38,806 nucleotides of DNA from a virus, in IMG/VR virus record IMGVR_UViG_3300029578_000027, one strand, 5' to 3'. Numbering within the stretch: position 1 is the first letter of the stretch; every line of letters begins with the position of its first letter. The notes under the pieces were generated by a model. The model saw only the letters and a list, made by a program, of their open reading frames with translations, was not told where the DNA came from and did not search any database. This document shows, in pieces, positions 753-36,107 of the stretch. Position numbers and translations under genes: made by a program.

Positions 753-1000
753 CGTGCCGCCCCACCGCGTCTACGTCAATACCCCGCGCATCCAGCGCAG
801 ACCTTCGGCGCAGGCAGGGCGGCAACTCCGGCCCATGACCCGGCCTCCGTGGTAGGTCACGGAGACCGGAAGGGAAGAAAGAGTGAAGCCGGCACAGGGG
901 CCGGGTCACAAGCCGGGTCGTGTTTTTTCATCAGCCAAAATCAGGCCTGGGCTCTACCGGACTCTGATAGCTCCAGCTGGACGCCTTCGGCAACCGAATC

Positions 1001-15688: not shown

Positions 15689-15733
15689 GTGCCCCGTCGC
15701 CTCTGCAACAAGCGGCGGGGCACTTTGCGTTTC
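15689..15733 (+). terminator. Intrinsic terminator (plus strand)
   Basis: A 12-bp stem, GTGCCCCGTCGC (15689-15700) with GCGGCGGGGCAC (15712-15723), including one G-U pair, followed by TTTGCGTTTC. Confidence 0.7.
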
Positions 15734-15889
15734 CGGCAGAGGGGGCGTCTGCCTGTCCGCAAGGAAACCGTACCAGAAATGGGTTTGGCAGCGCAATGCC
15801 CAAATTGGGGAAATGTGCAGTATACTGCCGGACCGGATTTGAGACTTTACCTGCCCATATTGGGAAATTTAACACAGGAGGGCGATTTT

Positions 15890-16303
15890 TTGACGATACA
15901 AGATCTATGCAGAGATAAAAAAGCCGCGTTGCACATGACGGCGCAAGACATCGCGGATCAATCGGGCGTGCCGCTGTCCACCGTCAATAACTTTTTTGCA
16001 AATGCGTCAAAAGCGCCATCCATCAATACCGCGGGGCCGATCTGCGCTGTCCTGGGGATTTCCATTGATGAGTTTTTTGGCATAGGGAATCACTATACGG
16101 CCACGGAAGAAACCTTGCAGGCTGAGAAAGTCGGCCTTGAGAAGCGTCTATCCAACAAACGTGAGATCATTACGATGATAAAGCAGGGCGTCAAGACCCG
16201 GAACCGCATCATTGCCGCCCTGATCGTGCTCCTGTTCCTGGCCATCCTGTACGGCCTGTATCTGGATTTCAGCTGCGTCCAGGTCGGCTTCTGGCGGGGG
16301 TAA
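15890..16303 (+). CDS. Membrane-anchored XRE HTH protein
   Basis: TTG start at 15890 lies 6 nt after AGGAGGG. HTH segment MTAQDIADQSGVPLSTVNNFF. C-terminal TM helix IIAALIVLLFLAILYGLYL. The tracked ORF starts at 15689 inside the terminator. Confidence 0.6.
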   Translation: MTIQDLCRDKKAALHMTAQDIADQSGVPLSTVNNFFANASKAPSINTAGPICAVLGISIDEFFGIGNHYTATEETLQAEKVGLEKRLSNKREIITMIKQGVKTRNRIIAALIVLLFLAILYGLYLDFSCVQVGFWRG

Positions 16304-16306
16304 CTC

Positions 16307-17341
16307 ATGGCAAGATACCCGAAATACTACGTCCGGCCTGACGGCCTCCATGAGACCATCCTCCGGATCAACGGCAAGCGCAAAGCCTTCCGGGGAAAAA
16401 CCGATAAAGAAGTCTGGGAAAAGGTCAAGGCATTTGACCGGGAGGCGGACCGCATCGAAACGGAAAAGGCCGCCGTATTTGAGAAAATCGCGGACGCATG
16501 GTGGTCGGAGATCGAACCGACCTTAGAGCACAATACCCAAAAAAGCTACCGTCCGGCGCTGGCCAGGGCCAAGAAGGAATTTGCCGGACGGCCCCCCGGC
16601 GAGATCACCGCGAAGGAGATCGACCAGTATATCAAGGACTTCTCCGCAACCCGCGCCCGGAAAACCGTGGTGACCCAGTTGCAGATCATCCGGCAGATCT
16701 TCCGCAAGGCCGAAGTGGACGGCATTGTGAGCTACAACCCGGCCAGCGCCGTAAAGCCGCCCCGGAACCTGACGCAGACCCACCGGGACGCGCCCCCTCC
16801 GGAGCAGATCGAACTCATAAAAAAAAGCGCAGGCCTCCCCTTCGGCCTGTTTGCCTTCCTCGTCTATTACACCGGCTGCCGCCGGGGCGAAGCGCTGGCC
16901 CTCACCGGCGCCGACATCGACCGGAAGAAAAATCTTGTACACATCAAAAAATCCGTGTATCATGTAGGCAACTCGCCCCATATCAAACAGCCGAAGTCTG
17001 ACGCCGGATGCCGGGACGTTCCGCTGCTTCCGGCGCTGGCCAAGCTGCTCCCCAAAAAGCTGGGAAAAGGCTACCTGTTCGCGGAGCCGGACGGCGGCCT
17101 CCTGACAAACGACCATTTTACCGCGCTGTATGATGCGTACCGGGACGCCAGCGGTGTCACCGTCACGCCGCACCAGATCCGACACGGCTACGCCACCGCC
17201 CTGCTGGAAAGCGGAGTGGACCCCAAAACGGCGCAGGTGCTCCTTGGGCACGCCCAGCTGTCCACCACCATGGACATCTACACCCACGTCCGGGACGGCC
17301 AGCTGAAGGCCGCTGCGGAAAAGATGGAAAAGGGCTTCTAA
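16307..17341 (+). CDS. int: Tyrosine integrase
   Basis: Catalytic signature TGCRRGEAL, HQIRHGYAT, LGHAQLSTTMDIYTHV. Adjacent to a tRNA-end fragment. Confidence 0.92.
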   Translation: MARYPKYYVRPDGLHETILRINGKRKAFRGKTDKEVWEKVKAFDREADRIETEKAAVFEKIADAWWSEIEPTLEHNTQKSYRPALARAKKEFAGRPPGEITAKEIDQYIKDFSATRARKTVVTQLQIIRQIFRKAEVDGIVSYNPASAVKPPRNLTQTHRDAPPPEQIELIKKSAGLPFGLFAFLVYYTGCRRGEALALTGADIDRKKNLVHIKKSVYHVGNSPHIKQPKSDAGCRDVPLLPALAKLLPKKLGKGYLFAEPDGGLLTNDHFTALYDAYRDASGVTVTPHQIRHGYATALLESGVDPKTAQVLLGHAQLSTTMDIYTHVRDGQLKAAAEKMEKGF

Positions 17342-17413: not shown

Positions 17414-17440
17414 AGGGTTCAAATCCCTCCTTCCGCGCCA
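17414..17440 (+). other. tRNA 3-prime-end fragment (T-arm, acceptor 3-prime strand and CCA): probable attP core
   Basis: AGGGTTCAAATCCCTCCTTCCGCGCCA. Contains a GGTTCAAATCC T-loop, a 7-nt acceptor strand, discriminator G and CCA. No matching 5-prime acceptor strand (GCGGAAG) lies upstream, so this is not a whole tRNA. Confidence 0.75.
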
Positions 17441-17449
17441 AATGAAAAA

Positions 17450-17486
17450 CCGCTGGAATTGCTTGCAACGCTTGCAATTCCAGCGG
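17450..17486. terminator. Bidirectional hairpin terminator
   Basis: 13-bp stem CCGCTGGAATTGC / GCAATTCCAGCGG, flanked by AAAAA upstream and TTTTT downstream. Confidence 0.75.
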
Positions 17487-17545
17487 TTTTTCGCCGTTTT
17501 TAGCTGACAGTTAAAACCAGATAGAACCGGTTATGATGGGATGTG

Positions 17546-17572: not shown

Positions 17573-18070
17573 CTACTTTCCCGCTTGGACGATACCGAAA
17601 TAGTAGGCAGCCAGCTTGTCCCGAAAACCAGGACCGTCTTTGTCAAACAAAAATGCTTGCGCCATCTCGCCAAAAAAGCCAACGGTCTTGATCCCATAGT
17701 GCAGCGCTACCTCGCTGTAGTCGGCGTACATCATATTTACGGTGATCCACCAGCACCACGGGGGTACCTGATCCGCAGAGATCCCCATGCTGTCCGCCAA
17801 AGCGCTGGTCTGCTCAATAGGCCAATGTGGGCCAGTTGTGCCATCAGCGTTTTCCAAGCCAGCCGCCCATTTTTCCGCTTCCGTTTTGGTAAAATCCATT
17901 TTCCAGCGGAGTAGCACGTCTCGTCTGGTCAAAGATTTTTCCGCCGAAGCGGTAATGTTAAGCTGAGATCGGATGGCGTAAAGGATCGACAACCGTTCAT
18001 AGTTTTTCCAACTGGACGGCTCCGCCTCCAACCGTTTGATCCACAAGGACAACTCCTGCTCATCGATCAT
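17573..18070 (-). CDS. Cargo cassette protein 8 (165 aa, unknown function)
   Basis: Clean ORF and last gene before attP. Conserved-looking segment ENADGTTGPHWPIEQT. Confidence 0.6.
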   Translation of the reverse strand: MIDEQELSLWIKRLEAEPSSWKNYERLSILYAIRSQLNITASAEKSLTRRDVLLRWKMDFTKTEAEKWAAGLENADGTTGPHWPIEQTSALADSMGISADQVPPWCWWITVNMMYADYSEVALHYGIKTVGFFGEMAQAFLFDKDGPGFRDKLAAYYFGIVQAGK

Positions 18071-18084
18071 GGGGCCGCACCCCC

Positions 18085-18450
18085 TTATCCCTCCACGGCG
18101 TCCATGCAGCGCTGGATCGCGCTACGAATGGTATCATCATCAGCATCGTCCAGCATATCCCGGAGCTGACGGCGCATAGATTCCCGGCCGTCGTCGCGGC
18201 TGTAATGGCCACGGACATAATGTCTCCGGGCATAGGAGCTGCCACGGCTATAACCGCGCAGATCATCGTCCAGATACCGCCCGGAATAGCCGCGCTCGTC
18301 CATCGCCTCGATCTTGTCGATGTTTTTGATGGTATCGGTCAGCTTGTGGGCAATGTCCAGATCCCCGGCACCCAGCTCGCCCTTGCGGATCAGCTCGTCA
18401 AGTTCCTTGCAGAGCATATCCCGCAGTTCATACATAGATTTCATTCCCAT
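18085..18450 (-). CDS. Cargo cassette protein 7 (121 aa; helical ends with an Arg/Tyr/Ser/Gly-rich centre)
   Basis: ATG 18450 is preceded by AAAGGAG. Low-complexity core GYSGRYLDDDLRGYSRGSSYARRHYVRGHYSRDDG. Confidence 0.6.
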   Translation of the reverse strand: MGMKSMYELRDMLCKELDELIRKGELGAGDLDIAHKLTDTIKNIDKIEAMDERGYSGRYLDDDLRGYSRGSSYARRHYVRGHYSRDDGRESMRRQLRDMLDDADDDTIRSAIQRCMDAVEG

Positions 18451-18464
18451 TGTGTTCTCCTTTC

Positions 18465-18890
18465 TCAGCAAACTCTGGTAATGATAAGGTTCGCGTTTCT
18501 CACGTCAATGTCCTCGCCACTAACGTTGCGGATGGACAGCGACGCGCAGCAGCCCTTTGTAACGTCAACGTACTCGGATGCCGCCACGTTAAAAAATGCC
18601 CCCGCCGCTGTGGGCGTCACCGTCGCAACGGAGGACGGCAGAGGCTCACCGTCAACCGCAATGGCAACGGAGATGGGGCCGGGGGTTCCGCCGGTGCTTA
18701 CGGCGATGTTGCCGATAAAGTCCACCTTGTAGCGGATGCGGCACTGGGAACAGTTCCCCCGAAGATTAAACAGGCCAGAGCCTACCCGGTGAGTGACAAG
18801 GCCCTTTGTGCAGGGGATCGGTGCCTCGGTAAAAAGCACGTTCTGATTTGCCGCCACAGTCTGCGTGGCAATCGCAGTGTATTCAGGCAT
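18465..18890 (-). CDS. Cargo cassette protein 6 (141 aa; beta-rich, Cys-containing, possibly C1q/BclA-C-like jelly roll)
   Basis: ATG 18890 is preceded by AAAGGAG. The alternating beta-strand pattern and Cys pairs (GNCSQC, KGCC, terminal RVC) suggest the fold, but the fold call is inference only. Confidence 0.55.
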   Translation of the reverse strand: MPEYTAIATQTVAANQNVLFTEAPIPCTKGLVTHRVGSGLFNLRGNCSQCRIRYKVDFIGNIAVSTGGTPGPISVAIAVDGEPLPSSVATVTPTAAGAFFNVAASEYVDVTKGCCASLSIRNVSGEDIDVRNANLIITRVC

Positions 18891-18904
18891 AGAAAACTCC
18901 TTTC

Positions 18905-18938
18905 ATAAAATCAGCGGCAGGGCTATTGCCCCGCCGCT
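18905..18938 (-). terminator. Intrinsic terminator inside the cargo cassette
   Basis: Minus-strand RNA forms an 11-bp stem (AGCGGCGGGGC-AAUA-GCCCUGCCGCU, one G-U pair), followed by GAUUUUAU. Confidence 0.65.
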
Positions 18939-19005
18939 TTGGTTTAGCATCGACACGGGGCCGATCATTTTGCCATTATCGGCAAAAAGCTACGCTATGC
19001 AGTTG

Positions 19006-19728
19006 TCAGCAGCCGCAACCGGCAAACTGGTTGCAGCAATAGGGGTTCTGCACCGTGTAGGCCGGAATGGGAGAGGGCCGGAGCTGAGACACCAGATAGC
19101 TGTTCTGTGCCGCCTGAGATGCGGCCAGCTTCAAGCCCTGATTCTCGCTCTGGAGATCCTGCAGCTTGCTCTGGGTCAGGAAATCGAGGATCGCGCGGCT
19201 GTTGCTGTTGGCATTGTCGATAATGTCCCGGGTGGCGTTCTGCACCGTGTTCCGGGTGTCGCAAGCCTGCGCCGCCATATCATAGCGCACGCCCTCGATG
19301 CTGCGCTGGGTGTTGCAGCAGCACTCGGCGGCCTGCATCTGCATGGCAGTCAGCTGCTGCATGAGTGCCGCCTGCTGGTTGGCGCGGGAAAGCTCGGCCT
19401 GTCCGAAGCCGTTTGCCATTGCCATGTTGGTGTTGTTGATGAGCTGCGCCTGCTGGTAAAAACCGTTGCACAGGCCGTCGTTTACACTGTCGATCTTGCG
19501 CTCAACATTGGCAAAGTCAGAGGTCAGCACATAGCCGTCGACCACGCCGCCGCCATTGCCGCCGTTGTTGCCCCAGCCGTTGCCGCCCCAGCCGCAAAAA
19601 ACAAACAAAAACAGGATAATGATCCACCATGCACCGTCACCGCCCCAGCCAAAGCCGCCGCTGCCGCCGGAATTTGCGGGAGCCACAGGCATCGTCAGCA
19701 TGGGAGCGCCGTCAGAGGAAAGAGACAT
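19006..19728 (-). CDS. Cargo cassette protein 5 (240 aa; Gly/Trp-rich transmembrane N-terminus, Gln/Asn-rich coiled coil, Cys-rich ends)
   Basis: ATG 19728 is preceded by AAAGGAG. N-terminus GGSGGFGWGGDGAWWIIILFLFVFCGWGGNGWGNNGGNGGG resembles YjcZ-type sporulation peptides. Also has an AECCCN motif and ends NPYCCNQFAGCGC. Confidence 0.6.
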   Translation of the reverse strand: MSLSSDGAPMLTMPVAPANSGGSGGFGWGGDGAWWIIILFLFVFCGWGGNGWGNNGGNGGGVVDGYVLTSDFANVERKIDSVNDGLCNGFYQQAQLINNTNMAMANGFGQAELSRANQQAALMQQLTAMQMQAAECCCNTQRSIEGVRYDMAAQACDTRNTVQNATRDIIDNANSNSRAILDFLTQSKLQDLQSENQGLKLAASQAAQNSYLVSQLRPSPIPAYTVQNPYCCNQFAGCGC

Positions 19729-19760
19729 AGAAAAACTCCTTTCGATTTTTTATTCATCAA

Positions 19761-19774
19761 ATCGTGGCCACGAT
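19761..19774. repeat. Perfect 14-nt palindrome ATCGTGGCCACGAT upstream of the 240-aa gene
   Basis: Read directly in the 51-bp gap between 19728 and 19780. Confidence 0.8.
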
Positions 19775-19779
19775 GTTGA

Positions 19780-19992
19780 TTACTTTATAAGCCCTTGAAA
19801 CTGTTTCGCCATTTCCTGCAGCTGGTTCAACTGGCTCTGAGACATTTTGCCGGATTGCAGAAGTTTCTCCACTTCCGCCTTCGGGTCCCCCTGAAACGAG
19901 GAGCGGAATTGATTAAACTGCTGCATCATCTGCTGAAACCGGCCTACCGGCGTGTTCCCGCCGCCAAGCGCGTTGAAAAATGGGTTAGCCAT
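19780..19992 (-). CDS. Cargo cassette protein 4 (70 aa, Gln/Met-rich helical)
   Basis: Clean ORF encoding MANPFFNALGGGNTPVGRFQQMMQQFNQFRSSFQGDPKAEVEKLL... Confidence 0.55.
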   Translation of the reverse strand: MANPFFNALGGGNTPVGRFQQMMQQFNQFRSSFQGDPKAEVEKLLQSGKMSQSQLNQLQEMAKQFQGLIK

Positions 19993-20419
19993 CCGCGTCC
20001 GCCTCCTTCGCCTTCTTTTTGCCCTTCATGCCGTCCACGACCGCCGCCAGCGCGTCAAATTCTTCTCGGGTGACAAACTTCACCGGGTCTGTCGTGGGCG
20101 CTGTATGGGGCGTTTCTGCGCGTTCTACGAGGTCGTAGATCGTAAGTGAGGGTTTACCGCTGGCATCTGCCTTTTTGAGGTACACCGTAGGCGCGGAGCT
20201 ATCCCACAACGCCACAGCGGCGTTGGGCGCGATCATCCAGTTTCGGGCCTCCTGTTCCCCACTGACCCACTGCACGCCGCTCTGCGCCACCGGGTTTTGC
20301 GGGGCCTGCGGCATCTGGGGTGTCATGGGCTGCATCTGCTGCTGGCGCATCTGCATGAGGTTATCCGGCATAGGCGGTGCGTAATAGGGATTTTGCCATC
20401 CGTAAGGTGTGTAAGCCAT
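19985..20419 (-). CDS. Cargo cassette protein 3 (144 aa; Pro/Gln/Met-rich N-terminus plus a small globular domain)
   Basis: ATG 20419 lies 9 nt after AAGGAGG. N-terminus AYTPYGWQNPYYAPPMPDNLMQMRQQQMQPM. Confidence 0.55.
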   Translation of the reverse strand: MAYTPYGWQNPYYAPPMPDNLMQMRQQQMQPMTPQMPQAPQNPVAQSGVQWVSGEQEARNWMIAPNAAVALWDSSAPTVYLKKADASGKPSLTIYDLVERAETPHTAPTTDPVKFVTREEFDALAAVVDGMKGKKKAKEADADG

Positions 20420-20420
20420 T

Positions 20421-20801
20421 TTAGTCATCCTCCTTGACCCAGTAATACAAGATATTCTCGTTGCTGCTGTCCCAACTGTCCCAGATCATGCCGTCGCAAA
20501 CGCAGACCACATGGCCGGATAGCGCCAGAATATAGGTGCCTTTGGGGTGATCCTCCGCAAATTGACCCACCGTGTAGCAGTCCGGGCAGGTGTCCGGCAC
20601 GATGTACCGCCGATATCCGATGCTGCGGAGATACCGCCCCCAACAAGCGTTTGCCGACGGCATATCACCATCCAGATACCCTTGGATGCACAGCCGCAAA
20701 TAAATTTCGCCCCAATCCTTGCCGGTAGCCTTTACGATTGCCCGCACGGTGCAATCCCCCACATTTTTCCCGCAGGGGTTGGGGTTGAAATGGTTATACA
20801 T
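20421..20801 (-). CDS. Cargo cassette protein 2 (about 126 aa; Cys/His-containing, possibly papain-like)
   Basis: GDCTVRAI ... SGHVVCVCDG ... WDSWD ordered as Cys-His-Asp. The start at 20801 overlaps the upstream stop. The fold assignment is inference. Confidence 0.5.
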   Translation of the reverse strand: MYNHFNPNPCGKNVGDCTVRAIVKATGKDWGEIYLRLCIQGYLDGDMPSANACWGRYLRSIGYRRYIVPDTCPDCYTVGQFAEDHPKGTYILALSGHVVCVCDGMIWDSWDSSNENILYYWVKEDD

Positions 20802-20931
20802 ATTCCCTCCGGTCATCGTATAAAAGCTCAATCATGCGCACACAGCGTTCCAGCTCCGCCGGATCGGTCTGCGCAACAATATCTCGCGCCAACTCCGCCG
20901 GATACCCGCAGGCCAAAAGCCGCTCGTACAT
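20794..20931 (-). CDS. Cargo cassette protein 1 (45 aa)
   Basis: ATG 20931 lies 8 nt after AGGAGG. The tracked ORF extends to 21060 through a terminator hairpin, which is not credible. Confidence 0.45.
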   Translation of the reverse strand: MYERLLACGYPAELARDIVAQTDPAELERCVRMIELLYDDRREYV

Positions 20932-20952
20932 TGTGTGCGCCTCCTTTACACC

Positions 20953-21020
20953 TATATAGTACAAAAAATCCGGACAGCCAAACTGCCCGGAAACTGCCTG
21001 TATTCTGCCCTCAAACTGCC
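20953..21020 (-). promoter_or_regulatory. Candidate regulated promoter of the cargo cassette: three phased GGCAGTTT repeats upstream of a TACTATATA -10-like element
   Basis: In plus-strand reading, AAACTGCC occurs at 20980, 20991 and 21013 (spacings 11 and 22 bp). The -10-like element is at 20953-20961. No recognisable -35. Confidence 0.4.
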
Positions 21021-21055
21021 CGAAAAAAGCCGTGTCCGATTCGGACACGGCTTTT
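21021..21055 (-). terminator. Intrinsic terminator built around dispersed palindrome copy 5
   Basis: Perfect 31-nt palindrome AAAAGCCGTGTCCGATTCGGACACGGCTTTT (21025-21055), with the core 13-mer at 21034-21046. On the minus strand it is followed by TTTTTT. Confidence 0.75.
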
Positions 21056-21056
21056 C

Positions 21057-21293
21057 TCATCCCTGCATATCATCCGCAATCTTGGCGTAGGCACGCCGCC
21101 GGATTTTCGCGAGGCCGTCCACGCTGACGTGGAGCAGCGCCGCCGCCTGTAGGCAACTTTGCCCGTTGACGTCCACCGCCAGCACCGCCGTCTCCTCGTC
21201 AGGCGGAAGCCCTACCAGCCGGACGGCCTGCGCCGCCCGGGCCGGGGCCATGGATGACAACAGCGCCCGGATCTCTCGGTTTGTTTTTTCCAT
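21057..21293 (-). CDS. Small sigma-70 region-4-like HTH protein
   Basis: LPPDEETAVLAVDVNGQSCLQAAALLHVSVDGLAKIRRRAYAKI parallels the region 4.2 pattern (LPxxxRxVLxL...S..EIA..LGxSxGTVKSRL.RA). Confidence 0.6.
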   Translation of the reverse strand: MEKTNREIRALLSSMAPARAAQAVRLVGLPPDEETAVLAVDVNGQSCLQAAALLHVSVDGLAKIRRRAYAKIADDMQG

Positions 21294-21362: not shown

Positions 21363-21764
21363 TTAGCCCGTCCAGTCGGAGCGTTTCTCCCGGACGTCAA
21401 TGTGGGTAAAGCCCTTCTTGGCGTAGACGCCCACGCCACCCCAATCGGGCATCAGTGTCCGGGCGAACGCCGCCACCGTCTCCGGCTTCTGGCCGCTGAC
21501 GGAAATATCCGCCGCCATGCCATAGCAGTGCTGGCTGTGGGCCGCGCCGTTCACTTTCGCGTTGTGCTGCGGCGTGCGGTAGGCGCTGTGAATGACCACC
21601 GGAGCGCCGAAGTGGGCGCGGATGGTTTCCAGCACCATTACCAGCCGGGGCGCGACCAAAACCGCGTCGCTGCCGTCTCCACACGCAAACTCCCGCACCT
21701 TAAAATGCGCAGAAAGCTGCTTGCCCCCGGAGGCGGCTTTGCTGTAAGCGTGGATCTCAACCAT
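21363..21764 (-). CDS. Peptidase M15A-type (zinc D-Ala-D-Ala carboxypeptidase-like) endolysin
   Basis: Zn ligand pattern SAYRTPQHN ... HCYGMAADI ... THIDV. Located in the lysis cassette. Confidence 0.8.
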   Translation of the reverse strand: MVEIHAYSKAASGGKQLSAHFKVREFACGDGSDAVLVAPRLVMVLETIRAHFGAPVVIHSAYRTPQHNAKVNGAAHSQHCYGMAADISVSGQKPETVAAFARTLMPDWGGVGVYAKKGFTHIDVREKRSDWTG

Positions 21765-22437
21765 GGTTATCCCCCCAGATCTGATACAGCGCCCGGACCA
21801 TGTCGGCGCGGGTCACGGTCTCCCCGGCGTTGGCGTCCGTTAGCAGGCCGTGAGCCTTGCCCCATACGAGGGATTGATCTTCCGTCTTGGCAGACCGTTC
21901 CCAGAACAGCAGCATGGTAGGCACCTTTCGGGTGCTGACCACCTTCCCGCTGGGGAAAATGCCCTGCGTGGAGCCGCCGCCGTCCAGCATCAGGGCGTCC
22001 ACCACGCCCAGCCCCAGCAGCTTGTTCTGAAGCTGCTCACGGGTCAGGCTGGCCTTGTCGCACCACAGGCATACCTTGCCGTTGGGCATCCAGCCCACCG
22101 CCGTCCGGGCAGCGGGACGGGCCACGTCGGCGGTCAGGCCCCGGTAGAGCTTGGACCCGGCCTTGAGGATGGGCACGCCGGACAAAAACGATCCGCCCCG
22201 GTCCGTCAGCATCTGCGGCTTGCCGTCACTGCCGATGGACACGCCCCAGTCCTGGTATTTGTCCCGGCTGATGACCTTGCCGTCGATCACGCACCAGCCA
22301 ACTGGAATGAAGCGCCCGTTGAACAGATAGCCGTTGATAATGTGGGTGCAGCCGGTCTTGGCCTTGATCTGCGCCGGGGTCAGCTTGCCGGTGTTGTGGT
22401 AGATCTGCGCTCTCGCGCAGTCGAACGTATCAACCAT
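21757..22437 (-). CDS. Phosphodiester glycosidase (NAGPA/DUF2233) family protein
   Basis: RTAVGWMPNGKVCLWCDKASLTREQLQNKLLGLGVVDALMLDGGGSTQ matches the family core, including LDGGGS. C-terminal ETVTRADMVRALYQIW is weakly SLH-like. Confidence 0.65.
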   Translation of the reverse strand: MVDTFDCARAQIYHNTGKLTPAQIKAKTGCTHIINGYLFNGRFIPVGWCVIDGKVISRDKYQDWGVSIGSDGKPQMLTDRGGSFLSGVPILKAGSKLYRGLTADVARPAARTAVGWMPNGKVCLWCDKASLTREQLQNKLLGLGVVDALMLDGGGSTQGIFPSGKVVSTRKVPTMLLFWERSAKTEDQSLVWGKAHGLLTDANAGETVTRADMVRALYQIWGDNHG

Positions 22438-22800: not shown

Positions 22801-22992
22801 TCAACCGTTTTTGTCCTCGGCTACCCGCTGGGTGCCGAAGTAGAATGCGATGACCGTGGTGAAGATGGTCAAAAACTCCGTCCCGGTAATATCCCCACGC
22901 AGTGCCAGCACCGCGAACACCACCGTCAGCGTGATGGTCACCAGGCTTTTTACCGCCAGCAGATTGCCCAGCCGTTTCTTGATGTTTTCCAT
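22801..22992 (-). CDS. Holin (two-TM, 63 aa)
   Basis: Two hydrophobic helices and a charged C-terminus (RVAEDKNG). AAAGGAG RBS. Positioned upstream of the endolysins. Confidence 0.7.
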   Translation of the reverse strand: MENIKKRLGNLLAVKSLVTITLTVVFAVLALRGDITGTEFLTIFTTVIAFYFGTQRVAEDKNG

Positions 22993-28949: not shown

Positions 28950-29316
28950 GCGGCGTCACCTCCCGCAGCGTAAAGCCTACATTGTGCCACAGCCCTACAC
29001 CATTCCGAGAAAAAGCGTAGGTTGGCTGTGTCATGGATTCCACTAAAAACGTGCCGGTGGACATAGTGTCGGAATCGTCCGGCAGATACACCACCGGGAA
29101 CGCCTTACCGGAGCGCAGCACCGCCGCCAGCTGCCGCCAGAGGGCGTTGCCCATGTAATCGTAACTCCATGTGATCATCTGCACATGGCCCCGGACCTCC
29201 TGTACCGTCCGGCCGGAGATCATCTGCACGTTAACAGACAATTCTCCGGGATAGCATTGATACTTGTCCCTGCTGGTTTCCGGCAGATAAATGCCGTTGA
29301 TAATCAACTGTGTCAT
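28942..29316 (-). CDS. Small tail component (distal-tail-protein position)
   Basis: 124 aa, overlapping the tape-measure stop and the tail-tip start. The function is assigned by position only. Confidence 0.5.
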   Translation of the reverse strand: MTQLIINGIYLPETSRDKYQCYPGELSVNVQMISGRTVQEVRGHVQMITWSYDYMGNALWRQLAAVLRSGKAFPVVYLPDDSDTMSTGTFLVESMTQPTYAFSRNGVGLWHNVGFTLREVTPHD

Positions 29317-31136
29317 GCCGTTGCCACCTCCGGGTTGCTTCTGGCCGCGTCCCGCAGATCAGGCAGAAGCCAGCTGGCGATCTGCTGGCCGTTTTGCAGG
29401 ATGAGGTTGATCGTATAGCTGCCGCCGGGGCTTCCGGCGCTCTGTGCCGCAAGTCCGTTCACCAGACCGGCAGCGGCATTATAGACGGTATCCACCGTCG
29501 GCGTGGGGATGGCGTCCTGGATCCCGGCGGTGACGCTCTGCATCTGCTTTTCAAAGCCCTGCCCCAGACCCAGCGCCATATTCTGGCCGATTCCGGCAAA
29601 CACCCGGGAGGGCGAGTGGATCCCCAGCACGCCTTTGACGCCGTCCACGAGGCCGCCGACAAAGCCGGAGACCTTTTCTCCGATCCAGCTGGCCATAGCC
29701 TTGATGCCTTCCCACAGCCCCCGGACGATGTCCTTGCCGACCTCGATGATGTCCGGAAGGGAATCCAAAAAGGTACTGATGATGGTATCTACCAGCGCCA
29801 GCGTACCCCGGAGCAGTTCCGGCAGATTTTGCGCCAGCCCCTTTACCAGAGATACGATCAACTGAATGCCCAGCTTCAGCACCTCCGGCAGCTTTTCCGT
29901 AGCATAGGCCACAAACCTTGTGATCATGTCCGGCCCCTGTTCCCTTACGGTTTCTGCAATGTTCTTCACCACGGACTCAATGACCGGCAGCACGTTTTTC
30001 GCCACATTTCCGGCGCTCTGGATCAGTTCCTCGGTCAGAGCGCCGATATCGGCGTTCTGATCGCCCAGACCCGTGACAAAATTCTGATATGCCGCCTTCA
30101 TGGAGTTGATAGAGCCCTCCACGGTGGTGGATGCCTCCAGTGCCGTAGTACCGGTGATCCCCATTTCCGTCTGGACCGTGTGGATGGCGTCCACAATATC
30201 CGCGTAGCTCTCAATGCTGTAATTGGTGTAGTTGCCCTGAGCGGCATTCAAGGCGTTGGCATCGTCGATCAGCCGCTGCATTTCCTCCTTCGTGCCGCCA
30301 TATCCCAGTTTCAGGTTGTCCAGCATGGTATAGTTTTGCTTGGCGAAGCCCTGATAGGCGTTCTGGATAGACTGCATGTCCGTGCCCATCTTGTTGGCGT
30401 TGTCCGACATATCCGTGAGCGCCAGATCCGCCTTTTTAGCCGCGGCTTCCGTGTCATTGCCCATGGACTGGAGCAGGGACGCGGAGAAGCTGGTCACCGT
30501 TTCCATATAGGCGTTGGCGGAAAGGCCCGCCGTTTTGTAGGCGTTCTCCGCGTTTTTGATCACCGTGTCGGCAGAGCTGCCAAACAGTGTTTCCACGCCG
30601 CCCACCAGCTGCTCATACTCACCGTAGCCCTCAATAGCGCCGCTGATGAGAGACTTGATCCCGCTGGCTACTGCCTTGATGCCGGACACGATAGCGCTGC
30701 CCAGCAGATTTGCTTTCAGCACATCGCCAAAAACGCTGGTTTTCTGTCCAGCGCCGTCCATGGCGTCGCCTACGCCTTCCACGCCGGTCTCCAGCTCGTT
30801 GAGCTGCTTTTTCGTGCGGTTTACATCGGTGGTGGCGTTGTTCAGCGCCTGCTGCCACCGCTGTACCTCACTGCTGTTTTCAGAGTAGTTGGCCTTGGCG
30901 TAGTCCAGTGCCTTCTGCACCTCGCCCAGGCGCTGCTGCTGGACTTCCAACTGCCGGTTCAGCACGTCGGACTGCGCCGCCAGCTTTTTCTGGCTGTCGT
31001 TGTCAACGTCAAAAGCGGAGGTCACCGCCTTCATCTCCGTACCAAGAGTTTTAAGCTGCTGTCCCATGGTTCGGAGGGATTCTCTAAATTCCTTTTCGCC
31101 GTCAATGCCGATTTTCGGGCCAATATCGACCGCCAT
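29313..31136 (-). CDS. Tape measure protein
   Basis: 607 aa, helical and Ala/Gly/Gln-rich. Follows the frameshifted chaperone pair. Confidence 0.85.
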   Translation of the reverse strand: MAVDIGPKIGIDGEKEFRESLRTMGQQLKTLGTEMKAVTSAFDVDNDSQKKLAAQSDVLNRQLEVQQQRLGEVQKALDYAKANYSENSSEVQRWQQALNNATTDVNRTKKQLNELETGVEGVGDAMDGAGQKTSVFGDVLKANLLGSAIVSGIKAVASGIKSLISGAIEGYGEYEQLVGGVETLFGSSADTVIKNAENAYKTAGLSANAYMETVTSFSASLLQSMGNDTEAAAKKADLALTDMSDNANKMGTDMQSIQNAYQGFAKQNYTMLDNLKLGYGGTKEEMQRLIDDANALNAAQGNYTNYSIESYADIVDAIHTVQTEMGITGTTALEASTTVEGSINSMKAAYQNFVTGLGDQNADIGALTEELIQSAGNVAKNVLPVIESVVKNIAETVREQGPDMITRFVAYATEKLPEVLKLGIQLIVSLVKGLAQNLPELLRGTLALVDTIISTFLDSLPDIIEVGKDIVRGLWEGIKAMASWIGEKVSGFVGGLVDGVKGVLGIHSPSRVFAGIGQNMALGLGQGFEKQMQSVTAGIQDAIPTPTVDTVYNAAAGLVNGLAAQSAGSPGGSYTINLILQNGQQIASWLLPDLRDAARSNPEVATA

Positions 31137-33515: not shown

Positions 33516-33807
33516 ACGCGTTCACCCGCCTTTCGCTCTGCATACTCAAAATGAGAGATTGATAGTTGTTTTCAAATACGTCCAAAGCGCTGTCTCTGGC
33601 GTAGCGGACGTATTCCATCAGCAGCGTCCGGGCGTCGCCGTCCGCTGTATAGTCCTGCGGGCTTCCGGCCTTCTTGTCCAGGTACCCCATCCCGGAGGCG
33701 ATGAGCCCGGATACCTTGGTATCCGTGGCCTCATCGCTCCAGGTGATGTTCAGGTAGTTTTCCACATCGGACAGCAGGCCGGGCGGCAGGCTGTTCCGAT
33801 CCGCCAT
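33481..33807 (-). CDS. Head-tail connector (gp6-like)
   Basis: VENYLNITWSDEATDTKVSGLIASGMGYLDKKAG...LLMEYVRYARD. Positioned right after the capsid gene. Confidence 0.7.
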   Translation of the reverse strand: MADRNSLPPGLLSDVENYLNITWSDEATDTKVSGLIASGMGYLDKKAGSPQDYTADGDARTLLMEYVRYARDSALDVFENNYQSLILSMQSERRVNAYAMESAVSPSP

Positions 33808-35282
33808 CAGCTCTTAGTAACGGTGACCGTGTAGGTCTTCTTGGCGGTGCCGTCAGCGGCGGTGACGTTGACCTTCACCGTGTTGCTGCCGGTCTGCCAG
33901 GTGGCGGCGCTGCCGTTGTCGATCTTGCGGTTGTTCACTAGCACCTCGATCTCCGCGCCTGCGTCAGAGGGGACAGCGGTCACGGTGTTGGTGGCGTTGG
34001 TGGTCTCCGCCGTGTAGGTCACGGTGCTGGCGGCAAAAGCGGGGGACAGGGCCTGAGAGCCAATAGACAGGGCGCTCAGAGTGGCGTCGTCAGAGGGTGC
34101 GGTCTCCGTTACCTGCGTCACCTTCCAGGTGGCGGGCTTCAAGCCGGAAATATCCAGCAGCAGGAAGGCGTTGTTGTCCAGAGGCATACCGTTGGCGTAG
34201 CCCTTAATGAGATACACCCGCTCGTCCTCCAGGAAATGGTAGTGGTCGCTGTACTCAATGCGGCCATTGGGCGCGGTGCCCGCCATAGCCAGATACCGGT
34301 TGGAGAGGCCCATCACTGCCTTGCCCCGGCTCAGCGCGGGGGTCTGAATAATGGTCATGGGATACGGCATCACGTCGTTGCGATAGGTGCCGTCGGGGGC
34401 CATCAGCGTAGTGGCGGGCATGACCTTCTGGTAATAGTCCTGCGGGTTGACCAGCATGATCACATCGCGCACACGGCGCGCCTTGCCGTTGGGGTCGGCC
34501 GCCATGATGGAGATGAGGTTACCCACGGTGGAGGGGTTCAGGTCGGTGACCTTGACCGCCGCCTTCTCGGGATACGCGCCGCCGGTCACGACCACGTTGT
34601 CGCCCACCTGGCGGGTCATGCCGATGGGCTTCTTGTCGCCGTCGCCGGTTACGATGCCCGCCTCCATGCCGTTGGCGAATGCCTCGTACATCACTTCGCG
34701 CACATAGCGGTCCAGCCACTCGGGGCCAAGATCCAGCATGGCCTTGCACACCGGCAAGAAAGCGGAGAGCTTCAGCAGCTGGGCGGGGATCTTCTTAAAG
34801 CCGGAGGTCAGCTCCTTGACGATGTCGTCGCAGAGATCGCCCCACGCCGCCTCCTCGTAGCCGTTGGTGTTCACCATGATCTCCACGGCGCCGCCGGTGG
34901 CCCGGAAGTTGATGCGGCTCAGCAGGGGGTGATTGGTCTGGAGATCCTCAAAAACGGAGTCGATCACCGTCTTGGGCAGCACAGCGTCCATGCCGGTCAC
35001 GGCCTGCCGGGGATCAATGGCCTTCATGGCCTCGCCCAGCTTCTGGTAGTAAGCGTGCTCCTCGCCGGTGAGCTGGTGGACGCCCCGGGCCGTCAGGATA
35101 CGGCTGTCCATTTCCTGGCGAAGGTCGGCAAGCTGCTGCTCATACTCCTGCTTTACGTCCAGGCCCACACGCTGGAGCATTTCGTCAAAAGCTGCCTGGA
35201 AGCTGGCAGGGTCATTGTCGGCAACTGCCTTCTGGATGAGTGTGCGGAGCTCCTCGCGGCTCCGGATGTCATTGTTCTGCAT
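33807..35282 (-). CDS. Major capsid protein (HK97 fold) with a C-terminal cadherin-like beta-sandwich domain
   Basis: 491 aa, following the ClpP-like protease. The last 90 or so aa (LSALSIGSQALSPAFAASTVTYTAETTNATNTVTAVP...GSNTVKVNVTAADGTAKKTYTVTVTKS) match the cadherin-like beta-sandwich pattern. Confidence 0.85.
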   Translation of the reverse strand: MQNNDIRSREELRTLIQKAVADNDPASFQAAFDEMLQRVGLDVKQEYEQQLADLRQEMDSRILTARGVHQLTGEEHAYYQKLGEAMKAIDPRQAVTGMDAVLPKTVIDSVFEDLQTNHPLLSRINFRATGGAVEIMVNTNGYEEAAWGDLCDDIVKELTSGFKKIPAQLLKLSAFLPVCKAMLDLGPEWLDRYVREVMYEAFANGMEAGIVTGDGDKKPIGMTRQVGDNVVVTGGAYPEKAAVKVTDLNPSTVGNLISIMAADPNGKARRVRDVIMLVNPQDYYQKVMPATTLMAPDGTYRNDVMPYPMTIIQTPALSRGKAVMGLSNRYLAMAGTAPNGRIEYSDHYHFLEDERVYLIKGYANGMPLDNNAFLLLDISGLKPATWKVTQVTETAPSDDATLSALSIGSQALSPAFAASTVTYTAETTNATNTVTAVPSDAGAEIEVLVNNRKIDNGSAATWQTGSNTVKVNVTAADGTAKKTYTVTVTKS

Positions 35283-35300: not shown

Positions 35301-36107
35301 TTAGCCAAACAGGCTCATAATACGGTTTTTCTGCTGGGGTTCGGGCTGAGGCTCCGGGTCTTTCGGATCAGGAGGGCAAGGCGGTTTATGACCAGTGTCC
35401 GCCGTCAACTGCCGGAGCTGGGCGGCAAGACTTTTCTGCACGGTGATCCGCTGCTCCAAAGTCAGGTTGGCCTTTTGCAGCAGAGCCGCAGCCTGGGTCA
35501 TGTCCGCGTCCTTTTCCGCGTAGCGGTCGGCCAATCCCAGCTCCATGCACTGTTCAGCCGTCAGCCAGGTCTCCGCGTCATACATTTCCTTCAGGGTATC
35601 CGGGTCCAGCTTGTCACCGGCTTTTTGGAGATAGGCTTCCATCCCCGCCTGATTGATGGTGTCCAGATTGTCTGCGGCCTTTCGCAGCTCAGCTGCGTTT
35701 CCGTAAATGCCCATGCTCATGTTGTGGATCATCATGAGGGCGTTGCGCGGCATCACCACCGTGTCGCCGGCCATTGCGATGACCGAGGCGATGGAACAGG
35801 CAAAGCCGTCCACATACACCGTCTTGTGGGCGCTGTGCCGCTTGAGCTGGTTGTAGATGGCCGTGCCCTCAAATACACTGCCGCCGTAGCTGTTGATGTA
35901 CACGGCGATCTCCGTCGCCTCCGGATGCTCCGCCAGCGCGTCCCGGAAGGCGTTGGCGCTGGTCTCGCTCTGGATCGTCTCGTCGGTCCACCAGTCATAG
36001 CTGTCGCCCTCCACGTCTCCGTAGATGTAAAGCTCCAGTGTCTTGGCGTCCTCCGCCCGCTGCTTAAGCGCCCACATCCTCCGTTCCTTCTGCTTGGGAT
36101 TACTCAT
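35301..36107 (-). CDS. Prohead protease (ClpP/S14-like)
   Basis: YINSYGGSVFEGTAIYNQL...GFACSIASVIAMAGD...MMIHN. Overlaps the portal stop. Confidence 0.85.
   Translation of the reverse strand: MSNPKQKERRMWALKQRAEDAKTLELYIYGDVEGDSYDWWTDETIQSETSANAFRDALAEHPEATEIAVYINSYGGSVFEGTAIYNQLKRHSAHKTVYVDGFACSIASVIAMAGDTVVMPRNALMMIHNMSMGIYGNAAELRKAADNLDTINQAGMEAYLQKAGDKLDPDTLKEMYDAETWLTAEQCMELGLADRYAEKDADMTQAAALLQKANLTLEQRITVQKSLAAQLRQLTADTGHKPPCPPDPKDPEPQPEPQQKNRIMSLFG

Follow-up and report, generated by a model that had tools for sequence, protein, structure and literature searches.

A widespread gene module of unknown function in gut phages

We analyzed a 38,806-nt stretch of viral DNA (IMG/VR record IMGVR_UViG_3300029578_000027), hereafter the window, in which eight co-directional genes (g1 to g8) lie on the minus strand between a strong terminator and a bidirectional terminator next to a tRNA-fragment attP. 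The preliminary description had reported these genes as a separately terminated cassette at the junction between lysis genes and attP, and this observation is confirmed. All eight ORFs exist with the lengths given there, and each is preceded by an AAGGAGG/AAAGGAG-type RBS, with several starts overlapping the previous stop. They are real coding genes, since dN/dS against five diverged alleles varies from 0.04 to 0.26, indicating purifying selection on all of them. Six of the eight hit PHROG families, all of unknown function. No Pfam, NCBIfam or PADLOC family fits the block, apart from one DUF.

Upstream of the block, a gene at 21057-21293 (minus strand) encodes a small HTH protein of 78 aa resembling sigma-70 region 4 only, with a Pfam Sigma70_r4_2 hit (E 1.4e-4, 21.9 bits) below the cut-off of 25.7. 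It is the last gene of the lysis operon, but we correct the preliminary description in that it belongs functionally with the block, being the candidate activator of its promoter. It travels with the block, being present upstream of it in all window-type loci, where its identity group co-varies with g1 and with the repeat type described below, and analogous small HTH genes sit upstream of the module in other lineages. An intrinsic terminator at 21021-21055 (minus strand; 18-bp stem followed by a T-run, dG -29.2 kcal/mol, z -7.2) closes the lysis/HTH transcription unit, and a hairpin plus T-run is found at this place in every sequence variant. Four direct repeats (GGGCAGTTTG-like on the minus strand) spaced exactly 11 nt apart (11, 11, 11) occupy 20979-21031 and are candidate operator/activator sites of the block promoter. 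Other lineages have different repeat words at what reads as the same 11-nt phasing, and in our reading the word co-varies with the HTH protein group, although this link rests on about five sequence groups. In locus L081 (L numbers denote retrieved relatives of the block), a 1.5-kb insertion separates the HTH gene from the block but leaves the repeats attached to g1. A second hairpin plus T-run (20969-20991, minus strand; dG -18.6, z -4.3) overlaps the last repeat and is followed by a -10-like TGTACTAT and the g1 RBS. It is conserved with changed loop/stem bases in L004-type loci.

The first gene, g1 (20794-20931), encodes a 45-aa helical peptide in which we read a UBA-like pattern (LLACGYPAELARDIV). 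It is an accessory member, found in 11 of 80 diverse loci and always upstream of g2/g3. The accessory gene g2 (20421-20801) encodes 126 aa from the ATG preceded by an RBS and is a predicted papain-like cysteine peptidase, matching phrog_3754 (E 1.6e-34) and having 1753 homologue clusters. Its invariant residues N8, D16-C17, R20-A21, H97 and D108 are consistent with the papain-like guess of the preliminary description, although no Pfam or PDB hit was found. The core gene g3 (19985-20419; 144 aa; phrog_21718) has 1946 representatives at 50% identity and occurs at position -2 relative to g5 in 74 of the 80 diverse loci. The protein has a disordered Pro/Gln/Met/Tyr-rich N-terminus, a small beta-alpha-beta-beta-beta domain (residues 48-100) and a C-terminal helix, with an AF2 pLDDT of 96-98 for residues 50-100 and no significant PDB fold match. 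The core gene g4 (19780-19992; 70 aa; phrog_22984) encodes a Gln/Met-rich helical protein found at position -1 in 61 of 80 loci.

The signature protein of the module is g5 (19006-19728; 240 aa; phrog_16490, E 4e-49), with at least 7984 homologue clusters, a family size that may be inflated by its low-complexity composition. It contains one Gly/Trp/Phe-flanked hydrophobic segment (residues 32-46), a Gln/Asn/Ala-rich helical coiled-coil region with an invariant CCC (AECCCN in this copy), the motif P-x-P-A-Y and a terminal Cys cluster (GCGC, within YCCNQFAGCGC). By hydropathy, g5 is the only protein of the block with a membrane-grade hydrophobic segment. A hairpin at 18913-18938 (minus strand; dG -24.6, z -4.4), absent from the preliminary description, separates g5 from g6 and is possibly a partial terminator or processing site.

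The core gene g6 (18465-18890; 141 aa; phrog_20016) is the most constrained one, being about 95% identical across loci where the neighboring genes are 45-80% identical (dN/dS 0.047-0.13), and has a near-invariant G-C-C motif. It is predicted with confidence to fold as a stand-alone C1q/TNF/BclA-C-like jelly roll (AF2 pLDDT 89.7), as the preliminary description had guessed. The top Foldseek hits are F-BclA-CTD, ExsF/BxpB and BclA-CTD (9h38, 9h3d, 8d02, 7r1m and 1wck, TM 0.65-0.76), and BFVD hits reach TM 0.8-0.9. The BclA_C HMM is not reached by g6, with only sub-threshold hits in relatives. The core gene g7 (18085-18450; 121 aa) encodes helical ends flanking an Arg/Tyr/Ser/Gly/Asp-rich low-complexity core. 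It matches phrog_28802 (E 6e-10 here and 6e-84 for the L085 homologue) and is found downstream of g6 in 57 of 80 loci. The last gene, g8 (17573-18070; 165 aa), has a conserved N-terminal helix plus a DUF7841 domain (Pfam E 1.1e-16, above the cut-off) that includes the motif ENADGTTGPHW. This slot is variable and the window carries a minority variant, since most relatives have a g8 of ~105 aa sharing only the first ~35 residues. DUF7841 is also found in the module of Bacteroides phage C3_41T2LP (E 5e-16) and next to a BclA_C-like gene in L088.

The block is closed by a bidirectional hairpin with a 19-bp stem (17444-17492; dG -35.7, z -7.4). Directly after it, 17414-17440 reads as the 3' end of a tRNA (AGGGTTCAAATCCCTCCTTCCGCGCCA on the plus strand), the likely attP core, and the integrase (16307-17341, phrog_1) follows. 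ARAGORN finds no full tRNA in the window, but in related integrated prophages the block abuts a complete tRNA gene (tRNA-Leu or tRNA-Val) at the same place. This supports a position next to attP.

The preliminary description treated the block as eight private genes of this phage. Our main finding is that it is one allele of a very large conserved module. Genes g3-g4-g5-g6-g7 form a core that recurs in the same order in more than 160 retrieved loci: the order is fixed in 80 close viral loci, 7 genome loci and 80 distant viral loci, the distant set having g3 in 74, g4 in 61, g5 in 80, g6 in 59 and g7 in 57. The small HTH gene, g1, g2 and g8 are frequent accessories. Relatives of g5 occur in Clostridium perfringens phages, Bacteroides and crAss-like phages, and a virus of the methanogenic archaea Methanomassiliicoccales, and every annotated hit comes from faeces or from a gut host. 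Many carriers are Lachnospiraceae or Oscillospiraceae, and the closest cultured one is Vescimonas fastidiosa. The module behaves as mobile cargo, since it is found in at least four genomic contexts: after lysis and next to att (the window, L089 and the Vescimonas prophage), between the minor head protein and the scaffold, in the early/recombination region (CPD1 and C3_41T2LP), and near lysis, terS and the major capsid gene in a crAss-like phage (cr116_1).

The interpretation given in the preliminary description is only partly supported. Its separately terminated, co-directional cargo cassette and the jelly roll guessed for g6 are supported by our results, and the papain-like guess for g2 is consistent with them, but the spore-coat/exosporium function is not supported, the YjcZ resemblance proposed for g5 got no NCBIfam hit, and the defence slot got no PADLOC support.

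Among known systems, the BclA/ExsFA(BxpB) hairy nap of the Bacillus cereus-group exosporium, including the F-Anchor/ExsF and F-BclA parts of F-ENA, shares the jelly roll with g6, which is, like ExsF, a stand-alone domain of roughly 140-170 aa without a signal peptide. There, a fibrous partner carrying a Pro-rich peptide docks in the cleft between the subunits of the ExsF trimer and is proteolytically trimmed (PMC12357932). The module likewise offers a fibrous protein with a conserved Pro-rich motif (g5) and a predicted peptidase (g2). However, it has no collagen GXY stalk, the candidate stalk being an alpha-helical, Cys-rich protein with a hydrophobic anchor, no hit to the exosporium-leader model was found in NCBIfam, and it is encoded by phages, including those of non-sporulating bacteria and of archaea. 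Eukaryotic TNF-superfamily ligands have the same overall layout of a type II membrane anchor, stalk and trimeric jelly-roll head, and EDA-A1 and 4-1BBL are among the g6 fold matches, but here anchor/stalk and head would be two separate polypeptides of undetermined topology, with no sequence relationship and no indication of a receptor. Phage fibres with C1q/TNF-like knobs, and coiled-coil fibres such as fibritin, also combine a helical shaft with a C1q-like distal domain. The block differs in lying outside the tail module of this phage, in its hydrophobic anchor segment, in its knob being a separate gene, and in having three low-complexity companions and its own regulator. Membrane organisers and spanins (phi29 p16.7; i-spanin Rz) have an N-terminal membrane segment followed by a coiled coil and a functional C-terminus, with conserved Cys residues in the helical part. 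In comparison, g5 is larger, lacks an o-spanin partner and a recognizable DNA-binding domain, and is conserved across hosts with entirely different envelopes. Morons and lysogenic-conversion cassettes at prophage ends share the promoter-like region and terminators, the position at a module boundary next to att and the mobility between unrelated phage backbones. Typical morons, however, are one or two genes with narrow distribution, while this is a unit of 5-8 genes kept in order from Clostridia phages to Bacteroides phages, also occurring in genomes that look non-temperate.

Several other functions could be considered, all of them less likely than the one we propose below. The best placed, although doubtful, is a virion decoration, in which g5 and g6 would form a head, neck or tail fibre (a coiled-coil shaft with a C1q-like knob) added to finished particles and helping virions to stick to mucus, epithelium or cell-surface glycans in the gut, with g2, g3, g4 and g7 as assembly and maturation factors. 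C1q/TNF-like knobs are typical distal domains of phage fibres, and the g6 matches include the A-1(L) short-tail-fibre CBD, the phi812 spike knob and, in BFVD, a 'fibritin neck whiskers' entry and tail fibres. Depositors annotated crAss-like g5 homologues as 'spike' or 'viral fiber', both g5 and g6 have strong RBSs, and in many phages the module lies between the minor head protein and the scaffold/major capsid genes. A capsid-binding accessory could also move between viruses of bacteria and archaea, and would be gut-specific rather than host-specific. On the other hand, a strongly hydrophobic Gly/Trp-flanked segment is unexpected in a soluble fibre, the window phage has a full structural module elsewhere with the block behind a terminator after the lysis genes, CPD1 and C3_41T2LP carry the module among early/recombination genes, and five to seven conserved genes, three of them low-complexity, is a lot for a decoration. 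Superinfection exclusion or another phage-versus-phage or defence function, with a membrane-anchored g5 and its partners blocking DNA entry or the assembly of competing phages, is unlikely. The moron-like anatomy, the membrane protein, the patchy, mosaic and recombining distribution with homing endonucleases nearby, and an unrelated three-gene insertion at the same junction in L081 favor it. However, no PADLOC family hit reaches a convincing level, the conservation over huge distances with purifying selection on all genes is unlike fast-turnover defence islands, the module is present in crAss-like and other apparently non-temperate genomes and inside head-gene clusters, and the exclusion proteins described so far are single small membrane proteins.

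A late lysis or release accessory, in which the g5 complex would act after holin and endolysin to finish envelope disruption or free particles, as spanins or other last-step factors do, seems slightly less likely still. The block lies directly after holin and endolysin in the window, in L089 and in Vescimonas, and close to holin and L,D-carboxypeptidase in cr116_1, the HTH gene ends the lysis operon, and g5 has an i-spanin-like layout. However, the family occurs in viruses of monoderm Clostridia, diderm Bacteroides and archaea, whose envelopes need different last steps, no lipoprotein partner gene is present since no N-terminus is signal-like, and in several phages the module is far from the lysis genes. 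The least likely is the lysogenic conversion of the spore surface suggested in the preliminary description, with the proteins joining or forming a coat or exosporium-like layer in sporulating hosts. In its favor are the exosporium proteins as best structural matches of g6, the partners without signal peptide and several of them Cys-rich, as in coat proteins, the Arg/Tyr/Ser-rich core of g7 reminiscent of CotG/ExsB, the Pro-rich motif of g5 loosely like the exosporium leader, and the Lachnospiraceae and Oscillospiraceae carriers. However, g5 and DUF7841 occur in phages of Bacteroides, g5 in crAss-like phages and a g5 homologue in a virus of Methanomassiliicoccales, none of these hosts sporulating, and Vescimonas is a genus whose type species is described as non-spore-forming. 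There are no NCBIfam sporulation-family hits, including YjcZ and the exosporium leader, there is no collagen-like stalk, and the upstream region shows, by eye only, phased repeats for a phage-encoded HTH rather than a recognizable sigma-K or sigma-E promoter.

We tentatively suggest that the block is one allele of a horizontally mobile, self-regulated accessory module of tailed gut viruses, building a protease-matured, membrane-anchored stalk (g5) with a C1q-like, spore-hair-like head (g6). Our analysis establishes the terminator-insulated transcription unit with phased repeats in front of it, the purifying selection on its genes and their gene-by-gene recombination, the position at boundaries between phage functional modules, the predicted BclA-C/ExsF/C1q-TNF fold of g6 and the membrane-grade segment restricted to g5 among the components, whereas the mechanism that follows is inferred. 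The HTH protein, made at the end of the late/lysis operon, would bind the phased repeats and switch the block on. The g5 protein would insert into the cytoplasmic membrane through its Gly/Trp-flanked segment and oligomerise through its long helical region, with the CCC ring and the terminal Cys cluster stabilising or metal-linking the bundle. Insertion and topology are inferred from a short hydrophobic stretch (13-15 residues) whose flanks carry no clear positive-inside signal. The g6 trimer would dock on the near-invariant Pro-rich C-terminal motif of g5 (RPxPxPAY), resembling the way the ExsF trimer clamps the Pro-rich exosporium leader of BclA and F-Anchor, but adjacency is the only evidence linking both proteins. 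In Bacteroides/crAss-like phages and in CPD1, moreover, the gene after g5 encodes a beta-rich, Cys-containing protein with no detectable similarity to g6, so the head may be interchangeable, or unrelated, and a position inside head-gene clusters and near capsid genes fits a virion role equally well. The low-complexity proteins g3, g4 and g7 would act as chaperone or matrix partners, while the peptidase would mature one of the components. This is the papain-like g2 here, and HExxH proteins in the Bacteroides and crAss-like versions, the HExxH motifs of the crAss-like module being our reading and the C3_41T2LP protein being annotated by its depositors as a PolyVal metallopeptidase. None of the partners has a signal-peptide-like hydrophobic N-terminus, so the assembly is most simply placed on the cytoplasmic face of the membrane of the infected or induced cell. 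There it could tether virion or genome assembly, or prepare release, and its function must be independent of the host envelope type.

The phage genome is an essentially complete temperate siphovirus-type genome, read mostly on the minus strand. It carries, in this order, the terminase large subunit (37329-38771), the portal (36100-37296), the major head protein (33807-35282) and the tape measure (29313-31136), followed by a holin-like 63-aa gene and then lysis genes, including an endolysin at 21363-21764. The block of eight genes (g1 to g8) comes next, followed by a tyrosine integrase (16307-17341) and a regulator (15689-16303) on the plus strand. The lysis cassette is only partly assigned, since the putative holin (22801-22992) has only hits to PHROGs of unknown function, and the 226-aa gene upstream of the endolysin (21757-22437, minus strand), presumed to be lytic, matches only phrog_18955, also of unknown function. 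No cultured phage is related at the DNA level, but one MAG contig, "uncultured Clostridiales UMGS1766", is nearly the same phage.

What the preliminary description observed is correct. All eight ORFs are present with the lengths it gave, each behind an AAGGAGG/AAAGGAG-type ribosome-binding site (RBS), and several starts overlap the preceding stop. Four hairpins were found: a terminator with an 18-bp stem and a T-run at 21021-21055 (dG -29.2 kcal/mol, z -7.2), a second hairpin plus T-run at 20969-20991 (dG -18.6, z -4.3), a hairpin between g5 and g6 at 18913-18938 (dG -24.6, z -4.4) and a bidirectional hairpin closing the block at 17444-17492 (dG -35.7, z -7.4). Immediately beyond the last one, between it and the integrase, 27 nt on the plus strand (17414-17440) are identical in form to the 3' end of a tRNA (T-arm plus acceptor plus CCA) and are the likely attP core, while ARAGORN finds no complete tRNA in the window. 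In integrated relatives the block abuts a complete tRNA-Leu (locus L089) or tRNA-Val (Vescimonas) and then host genes, so that the placement of the block between lysis and attP holds. An Rfam search returned nothing in the block, except that the terminator hairpin matched weakly as "miRNA"; in the early-gene arm of the phage, 756-823 (minus strand) matches the DUF3800-VIII RNA motif above its gathering score (50.1 bits against 40.2, E 1.5e-6). The genes are real, as dN/dS against five diverged alleles is 0.04-0.26 for every one of them.

A scan of IMG/VR with g6 found 140 close relatives, and in the 80 loci fetched the order HTH-g1-g2-g3-g4-g5-g6-g7 is kept, where HTH is the small gene upstream of the block. 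In those loci g6 stays near 95% identical, while g1 (42-100%), g3 (42-98%), g4 (62-100%), g5 (69-99%), g7 (68-99%) and the HTH (43-98%) vary. Synonymous divergence of g6 is also low (0.2-0.3, against 0.8 to more than 2 for its neighbors), and its uniformity therefore combines recent allele spread with the strongest constraint, dN/dS being 0.047 where dS is saturated. Different genes of the block show different divergence in the same pair of phages, which indicates gene-by-gene recombination. Seven genome contigs, from Ruminococcus bicirculans, Lachnospiraceae, Acetatifactor, Hungatella and Eubacteriales, carry g2-g7 in order at 30-55% identity. A second IMG/VR scan, seeded with distant g5 homologues, gave 80 further loci, in which we called ORFs and ran jackhmmer from the window proteins. 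This found g3 in 74, g4 in 61, g5 in 80, g6 in 59, g7 in 57, g8 in 24, g2 in 22 and g1 in 11 of the 80 loci, at fixed relative positions, and the core is therefore g3-g4-g5-g6-g7. A 196-aa helical protein is an extra member between g6 and g7 in 41 of these 80 distant loci (for example L109 6238-6828) and in Clostridium perfringens phage CPD1 (CPD1_043; L091 6334-6861), although it is absent from the window; by eye it has a ferritin-like look, but it has no Pfam hit. The g5 family has at least 7984 clusters at 90% identity, a count that the low-complexity composition may inflate, g2 has 1753 clusters, g3 has 1946 representatives at 50% identity (591 of them with E at or below 1e-10), and g6 has 120 clusters by direct search and more by iteration.

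By tblastn against annotated phage records, g5 hits were found in C. perfringens phages (CPD1, XP41-N3, HMD-PC1, PMQ04, 17DYC), in many crAss-like genomes, where they are annotated "spike protein/glycoprotein" or "outer capsid protein/viral fiber", in Bacteroides uniformis phage C3_41T2LP and, through the crAss-like homologue, in viruses assigned to Methanomassiliicoccales, one of them annotated phrog_16490, the same PHROG as g5. The full-length architecture is shared, with a Gly/Trp/Phe-flanked hydrophobic segment, an invariant CCC, L-x-x-S-Q-x-A-Q, P-x-P-A-Y and a terminal GCGC. Every annotated hit comes from feces or from gut hosts. In CPD1 the neighbors are a g3 homologue (jackhmmer 1e-24), a g4-like Met/Gln-rich 77-aa protein, an HNH insertion, g5, a 125-aa beta-rich, Cys-containing protein and two more small proteins. 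In C3_41T2LP, g5 is followed by a 180-aa beta-rich, Cys-containing protein, a coiled-coil protein, a 77-aa Arg/Tyr/Asp-rich protein and a DUF7841 protein (E 5e-16), and then by a protein that the depositors call a PolyVal metallopeptidase. DUF7841 also lies three genes after a BclA_C-like g6 relative in another contig. However, hhalign of the g6 profile against the proteins after g5 in CPD1, the crAss-like cr116_1 and C3_41T2LP showed no similarity, and jackhmmer did not link g4, g6 or g7 to the Bacteroides or crAss-like versions. Homology between the Clostridia and Bacteroides versions is demonstrated only for g5 and, in C3_41T2LP, DUF7841, and for the other slots it is analogy by order, size and composition. 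In the archaeal virus Caudoviricetes sp. vir215 (Methanomassiliicoccales; L093 3152-5759), the g5 homologue sits directly after a diversity-generating-retroelement reverse transcriptase and is followed by a 396-aa repeat protein with a C-terminal membrane anchor, and then by the integrase.

The module occurs in four kinds of place: after the lysis genes, next to att (window type, L089 and Vescimonas); between the SPP1-gp7-like minor head protein and the scaffold/major capsid genes (Hungatella prophage L085 and a large IMG/VR lineage); among early/recombination genes (CPD1, C3_41T2LP); and between holin/carboxypeptidase/terS and the capsid gene in cr116_1. These are all boundaries between functional modules, which fits a mobile accessory unit. 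With its terminators and phased repeats, and with its presence in unrelated backbones, the block has the sequence features of a moron or accessory cassette, its autonomous expression being inferred. Homing-endonuclease genes (HNH, I-HmuI-like, HNH-AP2) are inserted inside or directly beside the module in three unrelated phages (L091 4044-4667, L094 4270-4890 and L085 2338-3195), which fits its DNA-level conservation among co-infecting phages. In the loci L081 (6470-7940) and L040, a 1.5-kb insertion of three opposite-strand genes, encoding a 206-aa zinc-ribbon-rich protein, a 112-aa Xre-like HTH protein and a 120-aa protein, lies exactly between the HTH terminator and the upstream repeats of the block, being a second cargo unit that uses the same junction. 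Vescimonas fastidiosa MM35, a cultured human gut isolate, carries the complete module at the end of a prophage on its 861-kb second replicon (L175; NZ_AP023416, about 245.5-254.6 kb), ending at tRNA-Val(GAC). In this copy g5 is 80% identical to the window but g6 only 46%, showing allele shuffling within the module.

In every sequence variant the HTH gene ends with a hairpin plus T-run. In the window, four direct repeats (GGGCAGTTTG-like on the minus strand) then follow, spaced exactly 11 nt apart. Other lineages have different words, GCAGAAT or GC(A/C)CTTTTC, which by our reading keep the same 11-nt phasing, and the word changes with the HTH sequence group. Downstream lie a -10-like TGTACTAT/TATCAT and the g1 RBS, and other lineages have unrelated small HTH genes in the same upstream position. 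We infer that the HTH protein binds the repeats and activates the block and, since it is the last gene of the lysis operon, the block would be switched on very late, although this is inference only. A true sigma factor was rejected, because regions 2 and 4 would both be expected and only a sub-threshold region-4 match exists in this 78-aa protein, which should be treated as an HTH regulator.

For g6, an AF2 model built with 45 homologues has pLDDT 89.7 and is a predicted jelly roll of the BclA_C/C1q-TNF type. The best PDB matches in Foldseek are F-BclA-CTD, ExsF/BxpB/ExsFA and BclA-CTD (E 5e-8 to 5e-6 and TM 0.65-0.76 to 9h38, 9h3d, 8d02 and 1wck), followed by EDA, C1q, 4-1BBL, Pgp3 and phage receptor-binding knobs, while in BFVD the best matches are stand-alone 130-145-aa proteins of uncultured gut sipho-, podo- and myoviruses. 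At the sequence level g6 has no Pfam hit, and distant relatives reach only 33.6 and 27 bits against the cut-off of 38 for BclA_C (PF18573). A G-C-C motif is near-invariant. Neither g5 nor g6 contains collagen GXY repeats, and an NCBIfam scan returned no family for them, including the exosporium leader (TIGR03720), so that a BclA-type collagen-like exosporium glycoprotein is not supported. Of all the products, g5 is the only one with a membrane-grade hydrophobic stretch (residues 32-46), and none of the others has a signal-like N-terminus. The YjcZ-like appearance of its N-terminus is in composition only, as there is no NCBIfam hit and g5 has 240 aa, against about 30-50 aa for those sporulation peptides. 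By eye, a double-glycine leader in g5 and a UBA-like g1 were also considered.

In g2, N8, D16-C17, R20-A21, H97 and D108 are invariant in 21 sequences down to 26% identity, in agreement with the order expected for a papain-like cysteine peptidase (oxyanion Asn/Gln, nucleophile Cys at a helix start, His and then Asp/Asn), while no Pfam, NCBIfam or PDB-sequence hit was obtained, nor any in a Pfam scan of 21 diverse g2 members. The g3 protein has a disordered N-terminus, a very confidently predicted small beta-alpha-beta-beta-beta domain and a C-terminal helix, with no significant PDB match in Foldseek (best E 0.17). PDB sequence searches with single sequences of g2, g3 and g8 and with profiles of g2, g3 and g6 gave nothing. 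The g4 protein is Gln/Met-rich, g7 has an Arg/Tyr/Ser/Gly/Asp-rich core, and g8 carries DUF7841 (PF25223, E 1.1e-16, 61.5 bits against a cut-off of 25.2). Altogether, Pfam, NCBIfam, PADLOC and PHROG scans of the eight proteins gave only DUF7841 and PHROGs of unknown function, apart from two chance-level coiled-coil hits in PADLOC (E 0.0016 and 0.028).

The most economical reading, which we hold only tentatively, is that g5 is a membrane-anchored, oligomeric helical stalk, that g6 is a trimeric head bound to the invariant Pro-rich C-terminus of g5 (candidate docking peptide QLRPSPIPAYTVQNPY), and that the low-complexity proteins and a putative peptidase act as assembly and maturation partners. 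The docking idea borrows from the ExsF trimer, which clamps the Pro-rich exosporium leader (IGPTFSALPPIYIPTG) in the cleft between its subunits; in BclA, the N-terminus is proteolytically trimmed (PMC12357932). The recurrence and order of the genes, their purifying selection and recombination, the hairpins and phased repeats, the hydrophobic segment of g5 and the predicted fold of g6 come directly from the analysis, whereas membrane anchoring, the trimeric state of g6, its docking on g5, peptidase activity, binding of the repeats by the HTH protein and the expression of the block are inferred from sequence, single-protein models and analogy alone.

Other readings seem less likely. A virion fiber or adhesin is unlikely, although it remains the strongest of the alternatives. 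An exclusion or defense function is more doubtful, with no PADLOC model matched beyond chance level, and a late release factor is about as doubtful. A two-component spanin, which would need an adjacent or embedded lipoprotein o-spanin gene and is restricted to phages of diderm hosts, is not supported, since no neighboring product has a signal- or lipobox-like N-terminus and the family also occurs in monoderm and archaeal viruses. The least likely is the spore-surface idea of the preliminary description, which fails on host range: module proteins occur in Bacteroides, crAss-like and Methanomassiliicoccales viruses and in the Vescimonas prophage, and the type species of that genus is described as non-spore-forming (PMC11334427). 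The earlier interpretation is supported in part, as an accessory cassette at a module boundary and in its guess of a jelly roll for g6, and not as a spore coat or a known defense system. A further possibility, which we consider unlikely, is a previously unrecognized multi-protein system shared by tailed viruses of Bacillota, Bacteroidota and methanogenic archaea in animal guts, consisting of a protease-matured, Cys-rich, membrane- or particle-anchored coiled-coil stalk with an exchangeable jelly-roll head and phase-separation-prone partner proteins. Its role would be tied to the gut habitat rather than to any one host envelope, for instance sticking particles or lysed-cell membranes to mucus or to other cells, or building a protective matrix around progeny, and it would have no counterpart among described phage functions.

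No paper, Pfam family (other than one DUF), NCBIfam model or defense catalogue was found to cover the module, and literature searches on DUF7841, on the Bacteroides phage host strain and on prophages with exosporium found nothing relevant. RefSeq labels the Vescimonas copies "hypothetical protein", and RefSeq, PHROGs and the depositors call the proteins hypothetical or give them names derived from coiled-coil artefacts. The individual folds have relatives, but the system as a whole has no described counterpart, and no component has an assigned function. The module is large and ordered, and it is one of the bigger remaining blocks of viral "dark matter" that can be attacked directly, and the cultured systems that carry it are the V. 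fastidiosa MM35 prophage, C. perfringens phage CPD1 and its relatives and B. uniformis phage C3_41T2LP. The finding also places the BclA/ExsF fold, as predicted for g6 and so far a hallmark of spore surfaces, in a phage context outside sporulation. A unit kept in order across Clostridia phages and recognizable in Bacteroides phages, with its signature protein also in crAss-like and archaeal viruses, points to a general and unexplored step of gut-virus biology.
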